NCBI GenBank assembly: GCA_963555755.3
Contig: OY820905.2
Span: forward strand, 1,216,001-1,280,000
Length of the DNA: 64,000 nt
Source of the DNA: Nitrospirales bacterium
Lineage (GTDB): Bacteria > Nitrospirota > Nitrospiria > Nitrospirales > UBA8639
Direction of reading: 5' to 3'
Shown: positions 32,243-44,008 of the stretch, piece by piece
How the letters are laid out: each line of letters starts with the position of its first letter
Position numbering within the stretch: position 1 is the stretch's first letter
Notes under the pieces: generated by a model
The model's input: the letters and a program-made list of their open reading frames with translations, nothing else
What the model was told of the DNA's origin: nothing
Database searches by the model: none
Made by a program: the position numbers and the translations under genes

Positions 32243-33267
32243 TGAAACACCGTACGGACTTCCTCCGAATTTGGGACAATCCTCAGACAGAAGAAGTGGG
32301 AGACTCCGTCGAAGAATTTCTTCATCTTCTTGGCGGACCAACCTGGATCGACATTCCCGGCAAGGATCCATCACGGTCTCGCGCCATTGTCACATTGCTT
32401 CACGGCAATGAACCTTCAGGGATTCGGGCCATTCATCAATGGCTTCGCATAGGCCACACCCCATTCGTCAATGTCGTCTGTTTCATTGGAGCAGTTGAGG
32501 CTGCCCTCGCCCCTCCTGGTTTTGCCTTTCGGACATTGCCAGGCTGCCAAGACCTGAACCGGTGCTGGCAAGAACCCTATGATAGTGTCGAGGGGCATAT
32601 TGCCCAAGCAGTCCTCCAACGATTCCAGCGCTTCAACCTGGAAGCCCTCATTGACCTTCACAACACCTCAGGACACAGTCCCTGCTACGGCATTACCACC
32701 CAAATGGGCGACAAACAGAAAGCACTCACCGCGTTGTTTTCCAGTCAACTGGTCGTCACCGATTTACGATTAGGGTCAATCATGGAAGCCACCGAGTTTG
32801 TGACTCCCACTATTGCGGTAGAATGCGGTGGAAATCACGACCAACAATCTGATCGCATGGCCTTTGACGGATTGACTCGATTTACCCAAACAGACTCTCT
32901 CTTTCCTCCAGGGAAGGAATATCCAGACATCTCGGTCTTCGAGCATCCGATTCGCGTTGAACTTCGAGAAGGCGCCACCGTGGCCTATGCATCTTCACCA
33001 GTAGAGGAAGCAGATTGTACACTCAGATTTGATGCCGACAATTTTAATTTTGATCTACGGCATCCAGGAGAACAGATTGGATGGGCCGGGCCAAACCAAC
33101 TGGATGTCTTCTTGGCACGAGACGCAAAAGGCCACAATCGAACCAAGGAACTCTTTACCGTGCTCAACGGCCAACTGCATATCACCCAACCGGGAAGAAT
33201 CCTCATGATGACCACCGACCCCATTATGGCCACAAGCGATTGCCTCTTTTACGGGCCTGTAAGATAA
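32242..33267 (+). CDS. Succinylglutamate desuccinylase/aspartoacylase (M14) family protein; last codons supplied by the IS256 end
   Basis: LHGNEPSG, DLNR, IDLHNT and VECGG; translationally coupled to the GCS2 gene. Confidence 0.85.
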   Translation: MKHRTDFLRIWDNPQTEEVGDSVEEFLHLLGGPTWIDIPGKDPSRSRAIVTLLHGNEPSGIRAIHQWLRIGHTPFVNVVCFIGAVEAALAPPGFAFRTLPGCQDLNRCWQEPYDSVEGHIAQAVLQRFQRFNLEALIDLHNTSGHSPCYGITTQMGDKQKALTALFSSQLVVTDLRLGSIMEATEFVTPTIAVECGGNHDQQSDRMAFDGLTRFTQTDSLFPPGKEYPDISVFEHPIRVELREGATVAYASSPVEEADCTLRFDADNFNFDLRHPGEQIGWAGPNQLDVFLARDAKGHNRTKELFTVLNGQLHITQPGRILMMTTDPIMATSDCLFYGPVR

Positions 33268-34582
33268 ACTGTGTAACTGGTATCATGACGGATCCATTGA
33301 ATAAGGAGGACTGATGACCAGAGCCAAGACCCCAAGCAAAACCGATGTGCTGTTAGATGAGCTATTGGAAGGGTGTGCGTCACCCGAAGACATATTCGGC
33401 AAACATGGGCTGGTGAAGCGTCTCACGAAACGGCTCGTAGAACGCGCCCTGCGGGCAGAACTGACCGAGCATTTGGGCTATGCCCCTCATGCCCCTGAGG
33501 GCCGTGGATCCGGCAATGCCCGCAATGGGAGCACGTCGAAAACGGTGCAAACGGCCCACGGGGATCTCCCGCTCCAGGTGCCCCGTGATCGTCAAGGCCG
33601 CTTTGAGCCGCTGTTGGTGCCCAAACGCCAACGGCGCTTGGAAGGGTTTGATGAGAAGGTCCTGGCGTTGTATGCCCGAGGGCTGACGACTCGCGACATT
33701 CAAGGGCATCTGGAAGAACTCTATGACGTGGAGGTGTCGCCCACGCTCATTTCGGCCATCACTGATGCGGTGTTGGAGGATGTGCGCATCTGGCAGAGTC
33801 GGCCCTTAGATGCTGTGTATCCGATTCTGTACTTCGATTGTCTGTTTGTGAAGTCTCGGCAGGAGGGCGTCGTCAAGAATAAAGCCGTGTATGTGGCCTT
33901 AGGGGTGAATCTACAGGGCGAGAAAGAACTCCTGGGGCTCTGGATCAGTGAGACCGAAGGGGCCAAGTTCTGGCTGTCGATCTTCACCGAACTCCAGCAG
34001 CGCGGGGTCCGGGATTGTTTTGTGGCTTGCGTCGATGGGCTGGGGGGCTTGCCAGAAGCCTTGGAGACGGTGTTCCCACACACCCAGGTGCAACTGTGCA
34101 TTGTGCATAAGGTACGGCAATCCTTGCGGTATGTGGTGTGGAAAGAGCGACGAGCCGTGGCGCGGGATCTGCGAGCCCTCTATGGCGCCGCGACGTTGTC
34201 GGAGGCGGAAAGCGCGTTGGAGACATTTGCCGCCAGGTGGGATGCGAAATATCCGACGATCAGTGCGACGTGGCGACGGCATTGGAGTCGGCTCACGATC
34301 TTTTTTGATTATCCCCCAGAAATCAGGAAAGCCATCTATACCACCAATGCGATCGAATCGGTGAATTTTTCGTTACGCAAAGTCCTGAAAAGTCGGGGAG
34401 CCTTTCCGACAGATGAATCAATTCTGAAGGTGCTGTATTTAGGGATGCAGCGGATTGCGAAGAAATGGACGATGCCCATTCCGCACTGGAAGCGGGCTCT
34501 CAACCAATTCGCCATGCTCTTAGGAGATCGAGTGCCAACAATCTAGCCCACAATTCAGTTACACAGTTAACTTGACAAGCCC
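33253..34582 (+). mobile_element. IS256-family element
   Basis: 26-bp imperfect terminal inverted repeats (gggcctgtaagataaactgtgtaact / agttacacagttaacttgacaagccc); flanks not duplicated. Confidence 0.92.
33314..34546 (+). CDS. IS256 transposase, apparently intact
   Basis: VPRDRQGRFEP, YPILYFD, CVDGL, QLCIVH and YTTNAIES. Confidence 0.95.
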   Translation: MTRAKTPSKTDVLLDELLEGCASPEDIFGKHGLVKRLTKRLVERALRAELTEHLGYAPHAPEGRGSGNARNGSTSKTVQTAHGDLPLQVPRDRQGRFEPLLVPKRQRRLEGFDEKVLALYARGLTTRDIQGHLEELYDVEVSPTLISAITDAVLEDVRIWQSRPLDAVYPILYFDCLFVKSRQEGVVKNKAVYVALGVNLQGEKELLGLWISETEGAKFWLSIFTELQQRGVRDCFVACVDGLGGLPEALETVFPHTQVQLCIVHKVRQSLRYVVWKERRAVARDLRALYGAATLSEAESALETFAARWDAKYPTISATWRRHWSRLTIFFDYPPEIRKAIYTTNAIESVNFSLRKVLKSRGAFPTDESILKVLYLGMQRIAKKWTMPIPHWKRALNQFAMLLGDRVPTI

Positions 34583-35094
34583 CTCGTCCCTGCCTCCCAT
34601 GTTGATCACAGCCTACAGCCAGTAGGGCTCCTTTGCTCCACAGGCATTACCCTGCTTCCTCGCTCCTACGAGCCCCTCCGCCACCCTCTCGTCTTCGACT
34701 CACTTCCCAGAGAGCTGGTTATAGAGCCGATCTTCCTCCAGGGATTTCTCCCTGGGACGAGGAGGGCTTCTCCCGTTGCGTCGTCTGTCCTTGCTCCCGT
34801 GCTGTCGCTCTCACCCCGCCGGAGTGGTCAGGCGTCTCAGCCCTATTTCGCCTGCCCATGCCGTCTTCGTCCTACGGTCAGGGACTCGACCTCCGAGGTT
34901 CCGTACTTTCGAGGCTACCTCTGCGTTCACTTGCGTTACGGCCCGGGAACTCGCTCACCATCCTCTACGATGGCTTTGTCGATGGGCTTCAGCGTCTCGG
35001 TTTCTCTCCACGCTGCCATCCAAGCTACAGGGCTCAGGCTCTTACCCTGGTGGGCTTGCTTCCCACTGAACAGACTCACCTTACCTGGACACAC
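34583..35094 (-). ncRNA. Group II intron 2: 5' part (DI-DIII, start of DIV), truncated by IS256
   Basis: GTGTG 5' end at 35094; ggccgtaacgcaagtgaac motif shared with intron 1; EBS1-like stem-loop gtcc-ctgaccgta-ggac; DIII-like ggcggaggggctcgtagg...ggagcaaagg. Confidence 0.8.
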
Positions 35095-35114
35095 AACCGT
35101 GCATGCGGTTTTCC

Positions 35115-36975
35115 CAAGCCGTTCACTTAATCTGTTGACACAAACCAGCAAACAGACATAAACAGCGCTTGTTTGCTGGCTTTCTTGTTTTGGATCATGC
35201 AGAAAAAATCTTCCGCAACTTCTACGCTGAAGCACCCTCGGATACCGCTCGAGTACGGTGGCTTCCAGATCAACCACTGCAAGTCTCCGGTCTGCTCGAA
35301 CTACGGCGTTCCGCCAGAACACACATCGGTGCGTGGAAAAAATAGCTACACTCTGGATTCACGCAACCAAGGCATTTCATCCTGTATCTGCACGTCCTGC
35401 GGCGAAGGATTCCCTCTCAAGAGCAACCTCGGCATCGCAGAAGAAGTCGAGCGCATGTCGGCCTACCTGTCGCCTCGTGAGGTGGCGTTCTGCCGTAACG
35501 ATGCCTGTACCAATCATACCGGTCAGGTGCCCGTAGGTACCGCTGGGGCATATGCCTCGTTCGGCAAGACCGCGATTGACAGCCCCCGCTGGCGCTGTAG
35601 CGTCTGCGGTACGACGTTCTCACAGAACACCAAGGCCACCGCCCGGCAGCGGGAACATCACAAGAACAAGACCATTTTCAAACTGCTGGTCAACAAGATG
35701 CCCGTGCGCCGAATCATCGAAGTCGCCGACATCCACCCCAAGACCTTCTACCACCGCCTCGACTTCCTCCATCGCCAGTGCCAATCATTTGCCGCCCACC
35801 GCGAGCACGCCCTATCCACCCTCCCCATTCGGCGACTGTACCTCGGCGTGGACCGGCAGGACGACCTTGTGAACTGGATGGTTCGCAAGGACAAGCGCAA
35901 CATTCAGCTATCGGCCATTGCATCAGTGGACAACGAACACGGTTACGGCTTCGGTGTCCACCTTCACTTCGACTCTTCTCTGGACAGCGAAGCTGTCCAA
36001 GCCGAAGTCGAGAAGAGCGGCGACCTTGGCATGCCCTATCCGCATCGTCGCGTTGCACGTCTGTGGCTCACTGCAGACCATGAGCGAGCCAGTGCCAAAT
36101 CCCTACGCACTTCGCGGCGCAAACCCGGACTGCCAACGCAGATCGATGAAGCCTATGCCGCAGCATTGATGCGTGACGATATCGAAAGCCCTGATGCGCC
36201 GTCGCCCGTAGAACGACTTCCTGAATACGGGATGCCAACCCATGGCGAGTACACCATGTCTGGGCATTTTTTCTTCCTCAAACGCCTGCTGGGCAATGTC
36301 CAAAAGTGGCGCTTCTTTATCGACCAAGACCCTGGACTGCGAGCCGCGTGCCTATCGGCGTTCCACGACGAGATCCGAGGCCGCACGGCGGATGCCTTCT
36401 CTGTTCGCATCACCAAAGATCTGACGGTGGACGAAAAGCGTCAAAAATACAACGAAGCGACGATGCTGTTCGTGCACGCAGAGCTCGCGCACCCAAAGAT
36501 GAAGCCGCAGGAGGTCAAGTTGCTGCTGATCAAAGAGCGTCTGGCCTGTATGACGCCGCACGGGAAGTGGCAGGATCGGTGGCTTGACCATCCTTTCCCG
36601 ACCATGAGCGAGCCAGAGAAGACAGTGGCCTACCTCACCAATCTGGGCGACTACGACGAAGAACACAAAGCTTGGCTCTACAACAAAGCGAGCGTGCATG
36701 GTGTCGATTCGTTCTTCAACCAAGTGCGTCGACGGCTCTCCCTGCTGGAGCGTCCGATCCATTCCAAATCCAACAATGGTCGGATATGGAACGGATATTC
36801 TCCATATAACCCGGGTAATGTTGCAAAAGTACTCGACATCATGCGCACGGTGCATAACTACATCCTGCCCGGCAAGGATGGCAAGACGCCAGCTGTGCGA
36901 CTTGGATTGGCCCAAGCGCCGCTGGACTACGAAGACATTATTTATTTTGCATCAACAGATTAAGTGAACGGCTTG
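35115..36975 (+). mobile_element. IS element (IS1/IS1595-related, family uncertain) inserted in intron domain V
   Basis: 24-bp perfect terminal inverted repeat caagccgttcacttaatctgttga; 9-bp TSD cggttttcc (an 11-bp reading is also possible). Confidence 0.9.
35197..36963 (+). CDS. Transposase with two Zn-ribbon modules
   Basis: CKSPVC, CTSC, CRNDAC and CSVC; HTH region; C-terminal KTPAVRLGL; fills the element. Confidence 0.8.
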   Translation: MQKKSSATSTLKHPRIPLEYGGFQINHCKSPVCSNYGVPPEHTSVRGKNSYTLDSRNQGISSCICTSCGEGFPLKSNLGIAEEVERMSAYLSPREVAFCRNDACTNHTGQVPVGTAGAYASFGKTAIDSPRWRCSVCGTTFSQNTKATARQREHHKNKTIFKLLVNKMPVRRIIEVADIHPKTFYHRLDFLHRQCQSFAAHREHALSTLPIRRLYLGVDRQDDLVNWMVRKDKRNIQLSAIASVDNEHGYGFGVHLHFDSSLDSEAVQAEVEKSGDLGMPYPHRRVARLWLTADHERASAKSLRTSRRKPGLPTQIDEAYAAALMRDDIESPDAPSPVERLPEYGMPTHGEYTMSGHFFFLKRLLGNVQKWRFFIDQDPGLRAACLSAFHDEIRGRTADAFSVRITKDLTVDEKRQKYNEATMLFVHAELAHPKMKPQEVKLLLIKERLACMTPHGKWQDRWLDHPFPTMSEPEKTVAYLTNLGDYDEEHKAWLYNKASVHGVDSFFNQVRRRLSLLERPIHSKSNNGRIWNGYSPYNPGNVAKVLDIMRTVHNYILPGKDGKTPAVRLGLAQAPLDYEDIIYFASTD

Positions 36976-37007
36976 CGGTTTTCCCGCACACGGCTTTCCG
37001 ATGTTCT

Positions 37008-38342
37008 TCATGTCAAGGCATGCGCCGAGCGCCAGCCCGCTACCGTAGGAACCTTATAGAGCCCGTAACGCTCATACAGATCGGCCTGCGGGAAACGACG
37101 TAAGCCGGTTCCCCTGTCCTTGATCTTGTGGCGTTTCATCAAGTGGGTTCGCAACCGGTCTTCCGCGTGAGTTTTGACCTTGCTCATCGTCACACTTGAG
37201 TTCCGATAGTGGAAGTAGTTCACCCAGCCGCGGAGGCTGCGGTTGACCGTTCCCACGAGGTCGCTCAAGGCAATGGCGGTCAGGTCCCGTTGTGTGAGTT
37301 CCGTCAGTCTCGCCTTGATCTTCTTCAACGAGGTGTCTGCCGGTCGAACATTCGGGTACGGCTTTCCAGTCGCCCCTCGACTCATCTGCAGCGTAAAACC
37401 CAGGAAGGTGAAACTCGCTTCGGTCGCGTCCACGATGTGGGTCTTGGCCTCGTTGAGACTCAGGCCCAGTTGGTCCAGTACGTGGCGCACGACCTTTAGC
37501 GGTTCCTCTACATCTTTTCGACACATCACGACAAAGTCATCTGCGTAGCGCACCAAGTGCGCGTGCAATGTATCTTTGCCGTGTCGCCGTTGCCAGGTTC
37601 GATCCAGAATGTGCCGGTAGCAGTTAGCCCGCAGCGGGGAAATCACTCCGCCTTGCGGAGTCCCCGTGCGGTTGGCTTTCCCGCCGCCTACACTTTTCCG
37701 GGTGCCGTCCGCGTCGTTGCCAATAACCGGGGCTTTGAGCCATTGCTTGATGAGGCGCAGGATGCCCCCATCCACAATGCGCTCGGCAACCACGGCCAGG
37801 AGTTTGGCATGCGGGATACTGTCAAAGTACTTCGACAGGTCGGCGTCGATGACTGGGGTGTAGCCGGCCCAGAGCGTCTTGGCAATGTCGTCCACCGCAT
37901 CATGGGCCGATCGCTTGGGCCGGAATCCGTACGAATTCGCACAGAAGTCGGCTTCAAAGATCGGCTCGATGATGAGCTTGACGGCCATTTGCGCCACTCG
38001 GTCTCGGATCGTCGGGATCCCCAGCGGACGCAGCCTACCGTCCGCTTTGAGTCTCATGACGCGCCGCACCGGTTGGGCTCGGTAGGTCTTGGCTTGCAGA
38101 TCACGGGCCAATTCCCTCAGAAACGTGTCTACCCCGATTCCACTCTCTATGGCCTTGAAGCTGATCCCATCACTCCCGGGGCTGCCTCGATTGGCTCGGA
38201 CAAGCCGCCAGGCATGATTGAGGATATCCTCCTGGCTGATCTTGTCGTAGAGGGCGTACAAGCGATAGGCCGGTTCTTGCTTGGCCTTGGCATACAGCTT
38301 CCTCGGCAGCGTCCTGATCGTCTCCGGGGTGGTTAGCGCCAT
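37008..38342 (-). CDS. ltrA: Group II intron reverse transcriptase/maturase without an endonuclease domain, decaying
   Basis: RPLGIPTIRDR, SYGFRP, DADLSKYFD, GTPQGGVISP, RYADD, FLGF and LRGWVNYF. Confidence 0.93.
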   Translation of the reverse strand: MALTTPETIRTLPRKLYAKAKQEPAYRLYALYDKISQEDILNHAWRLVRANRGSPGSDGISFKAIESGIGVDTFLRELARDLQAKTYRAQPVRRVMRLKADGRLRPLGIPTIRDRVAQMAVKLIIEPIFEADFCANSYGFRPKRSAHDAVDDIAKTLWAGYTPVIDADLSKYFDSIPHAKLLAVVAERIVDGGILRLIKQWLKAPVIGNDADGTRKSVGGGKANRTGTPQGGVISPLRANCYRHILDRTWQRRHGKDTLHAHLVRYADDFVVMCRKDVEEPLKVVRHVLDQLGLSLNEAKTHIVDATEASFTFLGFTLQMSRGATGKPYPNVRPADTSLKKIKARLTELTQRDLTAIALSDLVGTVNRSLRGWVNYFHYRNSSVTMSKVKTHAEDRLRTHLMKRHKIKDRGTGLRRFPQADLYERYGLYKVPTVAGWRSAHALT

Positions 38343-38941
38343 GGCAATCCCCTGATCCTCCGCTCTTCGGTTGCATGAACACAGCAGGGTTCCTTCCCTC
38401 GACCGGGGTTGTGTGGTCCCTCGGCCTCACGCGGTACGATGAACCCCTCCGACTCCCGTTCCGGGCCGCTGTGATTTCGTGGCCTTCTACACAGTGGTCG
38501 GTGGCCTCCCCACCCCCACAACGGGTCTCCAGCACTGGGCGATACGTCTTCCAGAACATGCCGTCCTTGCTACCCCGGGAGTCGAGGGATGCCACTTCCG
38601 TTATTCCAGCACCCTTCCACCGGCCTTCCCCTTCTGACCACAGGGTCGGCGTCTCCACTTTCATGTACGAGGCTACTCATCGGTTCACTTGCGTGACGGC
38701 CTGCTCTTTTGCTGTGGGGAAACTGACGACCCCGTGTGACCACGACGCCGCTTCCTCATACTACCAAGGTGTACGGACAATTCCTTGGACGGGACTTTAA
38801 CCCGCTAGACATACTGCTGTTACTGCGAACGGTCAGACTCGAATTACATCTCCACGTTTTATCATAAGGCGAAGCCAACCAAAGGGGAAAAGGGGGCGCA
38901 ACTGATACCTGTTCATTCTGCAAACTACCAAACGAAAGAAG

Positions 38942-38996
38942 AATATTGGTGCCCCCGAGACGATTTGAACGTCCGGCCTACGGTTTAGGAAACCGT
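38942..38996 (-). repeat. att site: 55-bp duplicate of the tRNA-Arg 3' half
   Basis: Identical to 43927-43981. Confidence 0.92.
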
Positions 38997-39358
38997 AACC
39001 AGCTCAATCTCCCCTTCGACGAAACACCGCCCCAGAAGCGGAAACCAGTTGATTGATCAATGAGTTAGGTCTGCCAACGAAGTTGCACTGAGTTGCGTAG
39101 GGTGTGAGGGGTGTGAGACCTGGCGGTTACAAAAAAGGTTACACTTTAATACGGTGGCCCTTCACCTAGGCCCGCCATCGCGGTCTTGTTTATGAACACG
39201 GTCACTCGATGAAATTCAGCTGTACTGGCAGCCTTCCATAACCCTCGAAATTCGCTCCCGCAAAAAGTCGATCCCCACAATTGTTCCGTTGGGGTGCCAA
39301 TGTCCGGACCCCTCATAGCACACTTGCTATTTTTCCAAATTGGCAATAGTAGGTAAGA

Positions 39359-43113: not shown

Positions 43114-43926
43114 CATGCTGTGCGGTTACAATTGATTCCGTTCTTCGGCAAGAAGCCACTCAATGAAATTCTCCCAGAAGATGTGGAAACCTATCGCGCA
43201 CAAAGAATGCGTCGAGATGGACGAAAGCCCAGTCTTGGAACAATTAACAATGACCACATTATCCTCAAACATGTGTTTAGTGTGGCAGAACGGCGTGGGC
43301 TGGTGATGATTAACCCTGCCAAGAAAGTGCCGATTCCTGATACGAATAACGAACGTGATAGGGTATTAACTGAGGATGAGTGGCACAGGCTCTATGAGAC
43401 AGCAGCACCCCACATTCAGCCAATTCTTTTAATTGCCTACCGACTTGGCCCACGTCTCGGTGAGATTATGAAATTGACCTGGGATCGAGTGGACCTTAAA
43501 CGGGGGTTTATTAAGTTGCGGGGTGTGGATACGAAGACCAAAGAGCCGCGTCTGGTTCCGCTGACTGACGATACTCAAAAGTGTTTGGGCGAACTGGCTA
43601 AGGTGCGGAGTTTAACAACAAATCGTGTATTCTTGTACGATGGCAAGTCCATTGATGAGATCAAGCATGCGTTCAAAACCGCCTTAAAACGTGCTGGAAT
43701 CAAGGATTTCTGTTTTCATGACCTGCGACACTGTGCTGCTACTAATCTTAGACGGGCAGGAGTAGATACTGTTACTGCAATGAAGATTGTAGGGCACAAA
43801 TCTGAGAAGATGCACCGACGCTATAACAGTGTCAATGAAGACGATTTACTACGAGCCATTGCCAAAATTAACACCGTAATAACACCTGCCGTTTCTACCG
43901 ATTCCACGACCGCTGTAAGTGCTTGA
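43114..43926 (+). pseudogene. Tyrosine integrase lacking its N-terminus
   Basis: R.GEI..LTW, TKT, FHDLRH, VGH and RY motifs; begins at the IS256 boundary. Confidence 0.88.
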
Positions 43927-43931
43927 AATAT

Positions 43932-44008
43932 TGGTGCCCCCGAGACGATTTGAACGTCCGGCCTACGGTTTAGGAAACCGTCGCTCTATCCACCTGAGCT
44001 ACGGGGGC
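43932..44008 (-). tRNA. tRNA-Arg (anticodon CCT)
   Basis: gcccccgtagctcaggtggatagagc-acggtTTCCTAAaccgt-...gttcaaatc...gggggcacca; 77 nt with CCA end. Confidence 0.95.

Follow-up and report, generated by a model that had tools for sequence, protein, structure and literature searches.

The locus

The DNA analysed here, hereafter the window, is a stretch of 64,000 nucleotides from a Nitrospirales bacterium (assembly GCA_963555755.3, contig OY820905.2, positions 1,216,001 to 1,280,000). It holds, on the minus strand, a group II intron (I1, the host) whose domain V (DV) is interrupted in its loop by an insertion sequence (IS) and, at the end of its 3' strand, by the 5' part of a second group II intron (I2, the invader), itself cut short by an IS256-family element. 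In window coordinates the elements are these:

33253..34582, plus strand: IS256-family element with inverted repeats of 27 bp and a Mutator transposase of 410 aa (homology and repeats)
34583..35094, minus strand: invader intron I2, its 5' 512 nt, from DI to the start of DIV (Rfam RF02003, 112 bits at 35068-34931; identity of 96-99% with the 13 other genomic copies)
34811, minus strand: candidate EBS3 (A), tentative; its partner would be the base that opens the 3' exon, a T in host families A/A'
34874..34879, minus strand: EBS1 (GACCGU) in a 9-nt loop on a GUCC/GGAC stem (fold; target covariation in 53 relatives)
34880..34916, minus strand: delta (34880, U) and delta' (34916, A), an internal pair of IIB type (aligned introns)
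34902..34906, minus strand: EBS2 (GUACG) (peak of the register scan; covariation in relatives)
35095..35100, minus strand: IBS1 (ACGGTT), 3' strand of the host DV facing the AGC triad (sequence)
35103..35107, minus strand: IBS2 (CGCAT), upper stem and bulge of the host DV (register scan)
35115..36975, plus strand: IS interrupting the loop of the host DV, with a zinc-finger transposase of 587-596 aa (30-bp inverted repeats, 9-bp duplication)
36976..36997, minus strand: 5' half of the host DV, AGC triad at 36995-36993 (sequence)
37008..38342, minus strand: RT/maturase ORF of host intron I1, 444 aa, YADD, nearer to g3 Ni.ha.I1 (49%) than to g2
38343..38830, minus strand: 5' ribozyme domains of the host intron (Rfam RF02005, 63 bits; alignment of host copies)

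Read on the minus strand, the two halves of the host DV lie around the IS, ACGGTT runs to 35095 and the GTGTG of the invader starts at 35094. This is the order first described in the initial annotation, which had also placed the GACCGT loop, in its GTCC/GGAC stem, at 34879-34874. The IS target duplication in the host DV is 9 bp long (GGAAAACCG), and the window DV, once the IS and one duplicate are taken out, has exactly the sequence found in an empty host copy, C1:3676944, which matches Rfam Intron_gpII with 50 bits. In the fold of this empty copy the base that follows ACGGTT, which is the first 3'-exon base, is the last paired one of DV and closes its stem, so that a single base of DV is left 3' of the invader. 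The insertion had been assigned to the DV/DVI junction: that placement holds in so far as full copies have DV on their 5' and DVI on their 3' side, and it has to be corrected by one nucleotide, into the end of the DV stem.

The missing 3' end of the invader, noticed from the start, is explained by the IS256 element at 34582-33253, which shows no target duplication at its ends and whose insertion took away both the 3' part of the invader and the host DVI. The same kind of element abuts the invader near its start codon at two loci, the window keeping the 5' part of the intron and C1:8391-11163 the 3' part, and the IS256/invader junctions adjoin a short stretch that matches the end of the IS. A tRNA (43935-44008) adjoins a tyrosine integrase (43120-43926), and a partial repeat of the tRNA is found around 38950-39000 (minus strand), which places the nested introns at the border of an integrated element. 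As for the host introns, their insertion sites appear to read TGACC-CC (the hyphen marking the insertion point), and we infer that the 5' splice site lies directly 3' of TGACC; a hairpin extension of 16-17 nt (38830-38815, minus strand, in the window, and likewise in the C1 copies) precedes the GUGUG/GUAUG motif.

Copies of the invader in the source genome

BLAST retrieved 14 invader 5' ends from the genome, 96-100% identical, 13 of them belonging to full-length copies. Eleven of the 14 are preceded by the 3' strand of a DV (ACGGAT in six cases, ACGGTT in five), two by the 3' end of another copy, in a triple tandem, and one, at C1:1562261, is ectopic, its flank being non-intron DNA that ends in TACGGAC. 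On the other side, host DVI resumes after 12 invader 3' ends, those of ten full copies and of two 5'-truncated ones, so that the search proposed in the initial annotation returns, within this genome, full copies flanked by DV on the 5' and host DVI on the 3' side. A DV-like hairpin precedes 0.4% of random positions (25,200 positions), and 11 junctions in 14 are therefore not a matter of chance. While the window copy is itself broken, twintrons with complete inner and outer introns exist elsewhere in the genome.

The hosts fall into three families, that of the window, a family 59% identical to it in the RT, and a distant one (35%). The 59% family includes seven ORF-less copies of 746 nt, at seven different sites. 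All seven are invaded (C1:2999, 1381243, 1690457, 2165998, 2225398, 2542960 and 2585433), and they have one internal deletion in common, together with a mutated start codon; ORF-less hosts are high-copy in genomes G063 and G066 too. At least 14 intron DVs of the source genome are empty (17 rows, three of which resemble chance hairpins). The triple tandem, head to tail at C1:2160017-2165998, is made of three copies with sequence differences between them, which is what successive insertions should give. Recent mobility is suggested by the near-identity of copies, by the empty sites and by the tandems. Near relatives of the bacterium by taxonomy rarely have the invader, which was found in 5 of 61 genomes, its own included, and there mostly as fragments.

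The RNA runs X1 and X2, seen as contigs only, cross unspliced junctions, and no spliced DV-DVI joint was found in them. The DV-DVI joint that occurs in runs X15/X16 was rejected as evidence of splicing, because it matches empty DNA copies and the type of these runs is unrecorded.

The invading intron

In full length the invader measures 1994 nt (1994-1996 nt among the copies) and encodes an RT of 434 aa. Its termini, GTGTG... and ...CCCTAC in the 13 full copies, fit GUGYG and AY, and folding gives it a DV of its own, with the AGC triad, and a DVI with a bulged A; the match to RF00029 scores 43.4 bits in one copy and 36.7, under the gathering threshold, in three. The RT/maturase ORF lies in DIV (TIGR04416, 356.8 bits for a cut-off of 300). 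It reads RFADDL, with FADD instead of YADD (FADD is present in 65 of the 81 proteins of the set), and it ends shortly past the maturase domain; no nuclease family was found among its NCBIfam matches. The RT phylogeny called for in the initial annotation puts it in the g2 clade, with B.th.I3 of pBMB67 (49% identity, SH-aLRT 100) and against g3 Ni.ha.I1, in a quick tree with one g2 and one g3 reference. Delta-delta' pairing is a feature of subgroup IIB, and of 70 aligned introns 65 have a Watson-Crick pair here (A-U in 21, G-C in 44). By these sequence features the invader is a class F/g2 group II intron, IIB-like, with an RT of the FADD type and without endonuclease.

A third intron family (C1:8218, 799616 and 3057986) deserves mention here. 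One of its 5' flanks lies in a host RT gene, at the RYADD codons; its three 3' flanks resemble the codons that come after RYADD, the known target of the M.a.I5 type. It might be that FADD lets the invader escape this family.

The DV of the invader itself ends in CGGGTT and matches its own EBS1 at just 3-4 of six positions; over 17 DV-user loci, own DVs average 3.2/6 and targets 5.8/6. An atypical DV 3' strand could protect the invader against insertion into itself, and self-avoidance is a possible meaning of the alteration. The atypical DV, however, also occurs in relatives that do not use DVs, and in an outer relative, L076.

Recognition of the target

In the window EBS1 pairs with IBS1 at six positions out of six, with one G:U, and EBS2 with IBS2 (host positions -13 to -9) at four out of five. 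Covariation was followed in 25 DV loci, two being omitted from the alignment, and in 28 non-DV loci of the relatives described below. At the DV sites 143 of 150 possible pairs form between EBS1 and the last six exon bases, and 104 of 125 between EBS2 and exon positions -13 to -9. At the 28 other sites EBS1 makes 158 of 168 pairs (permutation mean 80) and EBS2 108 of 140 (mean 64), so that EBS2 pairs amount to 212 of 265 over both groups. None of 10,000 permutations reached any of the four values, counts that are not probabilities, related sequences not being independent; the register peaks are sharp. This covariation with unrelated targets bears out the identification of the GACCGT loop as EBS1. 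At DV targets EBS1 therefore reads the strand that faces the AGC triad, while the two-base bulge and the upper stem are read by EBS2, and both change along with the version of the host DV. For the candidate EBS3 (position 284) pairing is seen in 40 of 44 relatives and both partners vary, but several invariant G columns score equally.

Each variant of the invader is tuned to particular versions of DV. The main one, GUCCGU with GUAUG, matches hosts ending in CATAC-GC-ACGGAT, and the window variant, GACCGU with GUACG, matches ACGGTT hosts; two GUCCGU copies sit on ACGGTT, with one mismatch. The "near-universal" target of the initial annotation is consequently too strong a term, given that each variant fits only some DV versions and that at least 14 DVs here are empty. 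Strict matches to the main variant number nine in the genome, of which seven are DVs, six of them filled; the sole empty one, at C1:228423, is opposite in replication orientation. If G:U is allowed, 116 genomic sites pair fully with this variant and six are filled, so that pairing alone may not account for the preference for DV.

Relatives in other genomes

A scan of genomes gave 597 confirmed matches, of which the best 80 were retained. Among these, 55 have a readable 5' flank, with 27 at the same DV position and 28 elsewhere, one of the latter flanks being half a DV. Of the 27 DV loci, 22 pass the strict test (null 0.4%) and five have AAC/CAC triads; they come from 21 of 47 genomes, by a tally of contig names, under eight phylum labels plus one unassigned deltaproteobacterium. 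A DVI with a bulged A then follows at 17 of 24 DV sites, compared with none of 20 other sites (null 3.7%). A copy on a plasmid of Paraburkholderia phymatum is at a DV; those of Bradyrhizobium elkanii, Megaera and Bacillus are not. Two relatives, L007 and L008, have a DV-type EBS1 yet sit at non-DV sites; the non-DV relatives mostly have a different EBS1. The expectation that relatives would follow a DV is thus borne out for about half of them, the other half being inserted elsewhere.

DV users are scattered through a clade of 71 rows (SH-aLRT 99), mixed with non-DV users, in a quick tree that is unrooted as regards the origin of targeting. A single clade restricted to DV was considered and finds no support in this interleaving. 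The idea of an intron lineage that parasitizes other introns is supported, all the checks proposed with it having spoken for it, but not in the form of a pure clade of DV specialists. An old specificity for DV with repeated retargeting is likely, as the simplest reading of these sequences; repeated gains of DV targeting are possible. At L009:4496-4710, where a relative has invaded a host DV, yet another intron (Rfam D1D4-7) begins some 8 nt inside the DVI that comes after it.

A probable route of the invader to domain V

We consider it highly probable (about 0.85) that a g2 intron whose EBSs match the 3' side of DV gets there by base-pair-guided retrohoming, and that it would block the host ribozyme. 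The lariat-RT particle would reverse-splice into the single-stranded lagging-strand template at replication forks, which is the known pathway of endonuclease-less introns (PMC4424553); a strong strand bias of g2-g5 introns is likewise reported (PMC8919778). By GC skew, the sense strand of the invader runs in the leading-strand direction in all 14 copies, and this orientation fits such a route. The hosts are biased in the same way (12 of 14 empty DVs), so that only the ectopic copy and the empty perfect site are independent evidence in this respect. Once in place, the invader would have found a safe haven, in the non-coding DNA of another selfish element, co-transcribed and renewed as hosts spread. 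The host ribozyme, with the end of its DV split off and DV and DVI 2 kb apart, would be stalled until the invader is cut out; the inner intron would splice first, restoring DV-DVI. A second invasion of a filled site would give tandems.

Other origins of the pattern have to be weighed. Selection might have acted as a sieve on an intron that accepts ACGG(A/T)Y-like sites loosely, wherever they occur, insertions into genes being purged and the copies in DVs remaining. The 110 fully pairing sites left unfilled when G:U is allowed, the ectopic copy, and L007 and L008 all agree with this. However, EBS2 tracks host-specific changes of the DV upper stem in the relatives (the 104 pairs of 125), seven of nine strict genomic matches are DVs, and one identical register recurs in 21 genomes, and as a full account the sieve is improbable. 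Purging probably contributes to the pattern, and leaves the programming unexplained. That the junction could be a deletion, a recombination product or an assembly chimera was a natural suspicion, the window copy being truncated in a region rearranged by IS256. It is refuted for the element as a whole, with hardly any probability left: the junctions are base-exact at 11 loci in three host families, contigs of the independent runs X1, X2 and X16 cross both junctions of one full-length copy, and the register is the same in 21 other genomes.

The two introns might also be an obligate composite, an ORF-less outer intron and an ORF-bearing inner one moving together, with the inner RT serving both. 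The ORF-less host copies of the source genome are indeed all filled (7/7), an ORF-less relative of the host, 85% identical, is filled in the genome of L005, and among 17 genome-level DV sites that have 1.5 kb or more of upstream sequence nine hosts look ORF-less, four having an RT and four being fragments, partly as judged by eye. Against this, the differences in hosts and passengers are incongruent: identical hosts (0/746 differences) carry passengers 16/1994 apart, and hosts 43/746 apart carry passengers 3/1994 apart, which argues for independent invasion and not for joint movement, although gene conversion could mimic it. Intact RTs belonging to the family of the host are present in the source genome. 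In other genomes empty ORF-less copies are frequent, ORF-less hosts being simply high-copy there: G063 has one filled site and 16 empty ones, and G066 has 18 filled and 12 empty among the 30 best hits obtained with a filled query, out of 40 or more, a count biased for that reason; in G061 four DV sites are filled and one is empty. Filled and empty copies of one host exist side by side in these genomes. Obligate co-mobility is in our view improbable as well and largely rejected, and we retain guided retrohoming into DV.

Known systems and significance

The g2/class F group of Toro & Martinez-Abarca 2013 (PMC3552965) has the FADD motif and the RT-X organization without endonuclease that the invader has; its members are listed there at transposase, hypothetical or non-coding loci, and DV is not among the targets listed. 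B.th.I3 of pBMB67 has a non-DV flank, unlike the invader. According to PMC2504315, M.a.I5, UA.I3, P.l.I2 and B.th.I3 of ATCC 35646 have other RT genes as homing targets, at the RYADD codons, and nested group II introns are described in Methanosarcina (PMC4424553). Like the invader, these introns lack an endonuclease and recognise, through their EBSs, a site conserved in other group II introns, with twintrons as the outcome. The RYADD-homing introns target the codons of a protein active site, whereas the invader targets the catalytic domain, also in ORF-less introns and across classes; scored by the IBS1/IBS2 of the RYADD codons (M.a.I5 type) it does not belong with them, its target being DV.

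In Thermosynechococcus elongatus, TeI3 within TeI4 likewise represents independent inner insertions into dispersed hosts, as seen from divergence, but with an ORF-less inner intron, a site at the ORF start and a single host family, where the invader carries an RT and has several host families, often ORF-less (PMC2882425). The psbF twintron of Euglena gracilis has a group II intron within DV, as here; it is a single degenerate chloroplast case, and the summary of it in PMC8393795 speaks of no EBS-programmed, repeated, cross-family targeting. Head-to-tail tandems made by a second insertion at a filled site, as in the invader, are known for EcKTE56.groEL, where pairing of EBS3 = U with G favours them, the candidate EBS3 of the invader being A (PMC12584367). 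Insertions of introns into introns are also reported in DI in Trichodesmium (PMC4649490) and in DIV in plant mitochondria (PMC7049729); nothing further on DV targeting came from PMC5572947, PMC3534033 and PMC6140425. Intron-in-intron homing is therefore known, at the YADD motif, at the ORF start and in one Euglena DV; programmed targeting of DV is apparently undescribed, no account of it or of a DV-preferring IS having been found in the literature searched, with key works outside its coverage.

In its widest form the proposal would be that DV, the catalytic core common to all group II introns, is attacked repeatedly: an old, cross-phylum g2 lineage, programmed against it through EBS1 and EBS2, would track DV variants, avoid itself by means of its altered DV and gate the splicing and mobility of its hosts, and an unrelated, unclassified IS family would have converged on the same hairpin. 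We see the odds for this whole as even. If true, it would mean an undescribed layer of hyperparasites, missed by annotation pipelines that discard nested introns. Such pipelines exclude or miss nested introns and twintrons (PMC4028801 and PMC8919778), a plausible reason for the oversight. Here a retroelement is directed against the active site of ribozymes like itself, with a target in every host class, ORF-less introns included, which sets it apart from the protein motifs targeted in the known cases. Hidden host introns, with DV and DVI split and hence missed by Rfam-based surveys, are predicted. With EBSs facing DV variants, nature offers a case of coevolution between host and parasite at a catalytic RNA, and also a testable control on the spread of group II introns.

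A second element in domain V

The IS at 35115-36975 is unrelated to the invader and also lands in DV loops, a convergence which strengthens the view of DV as a general safe harbour. All four genomic copies of its family lie in DV loops, in two host families, and it inserts there in both orientations, with ends CAAGCCGTT. No Pfam family was found for its transposase, which has weak IS1-type matches and falls in unnamed Atlas clusters. Of its 52 relatives in metagenomes 42 have a flank of at least 25 nt, and about 31 of these 42 match a DV half, by a loose pattern with a null of 4.3% per flank that, by eye, gave two false positives and missed two. The other genomic copies of the IS are at C1:775532, 1024325 and 3058590, and its metagenome loci are L103-L154.
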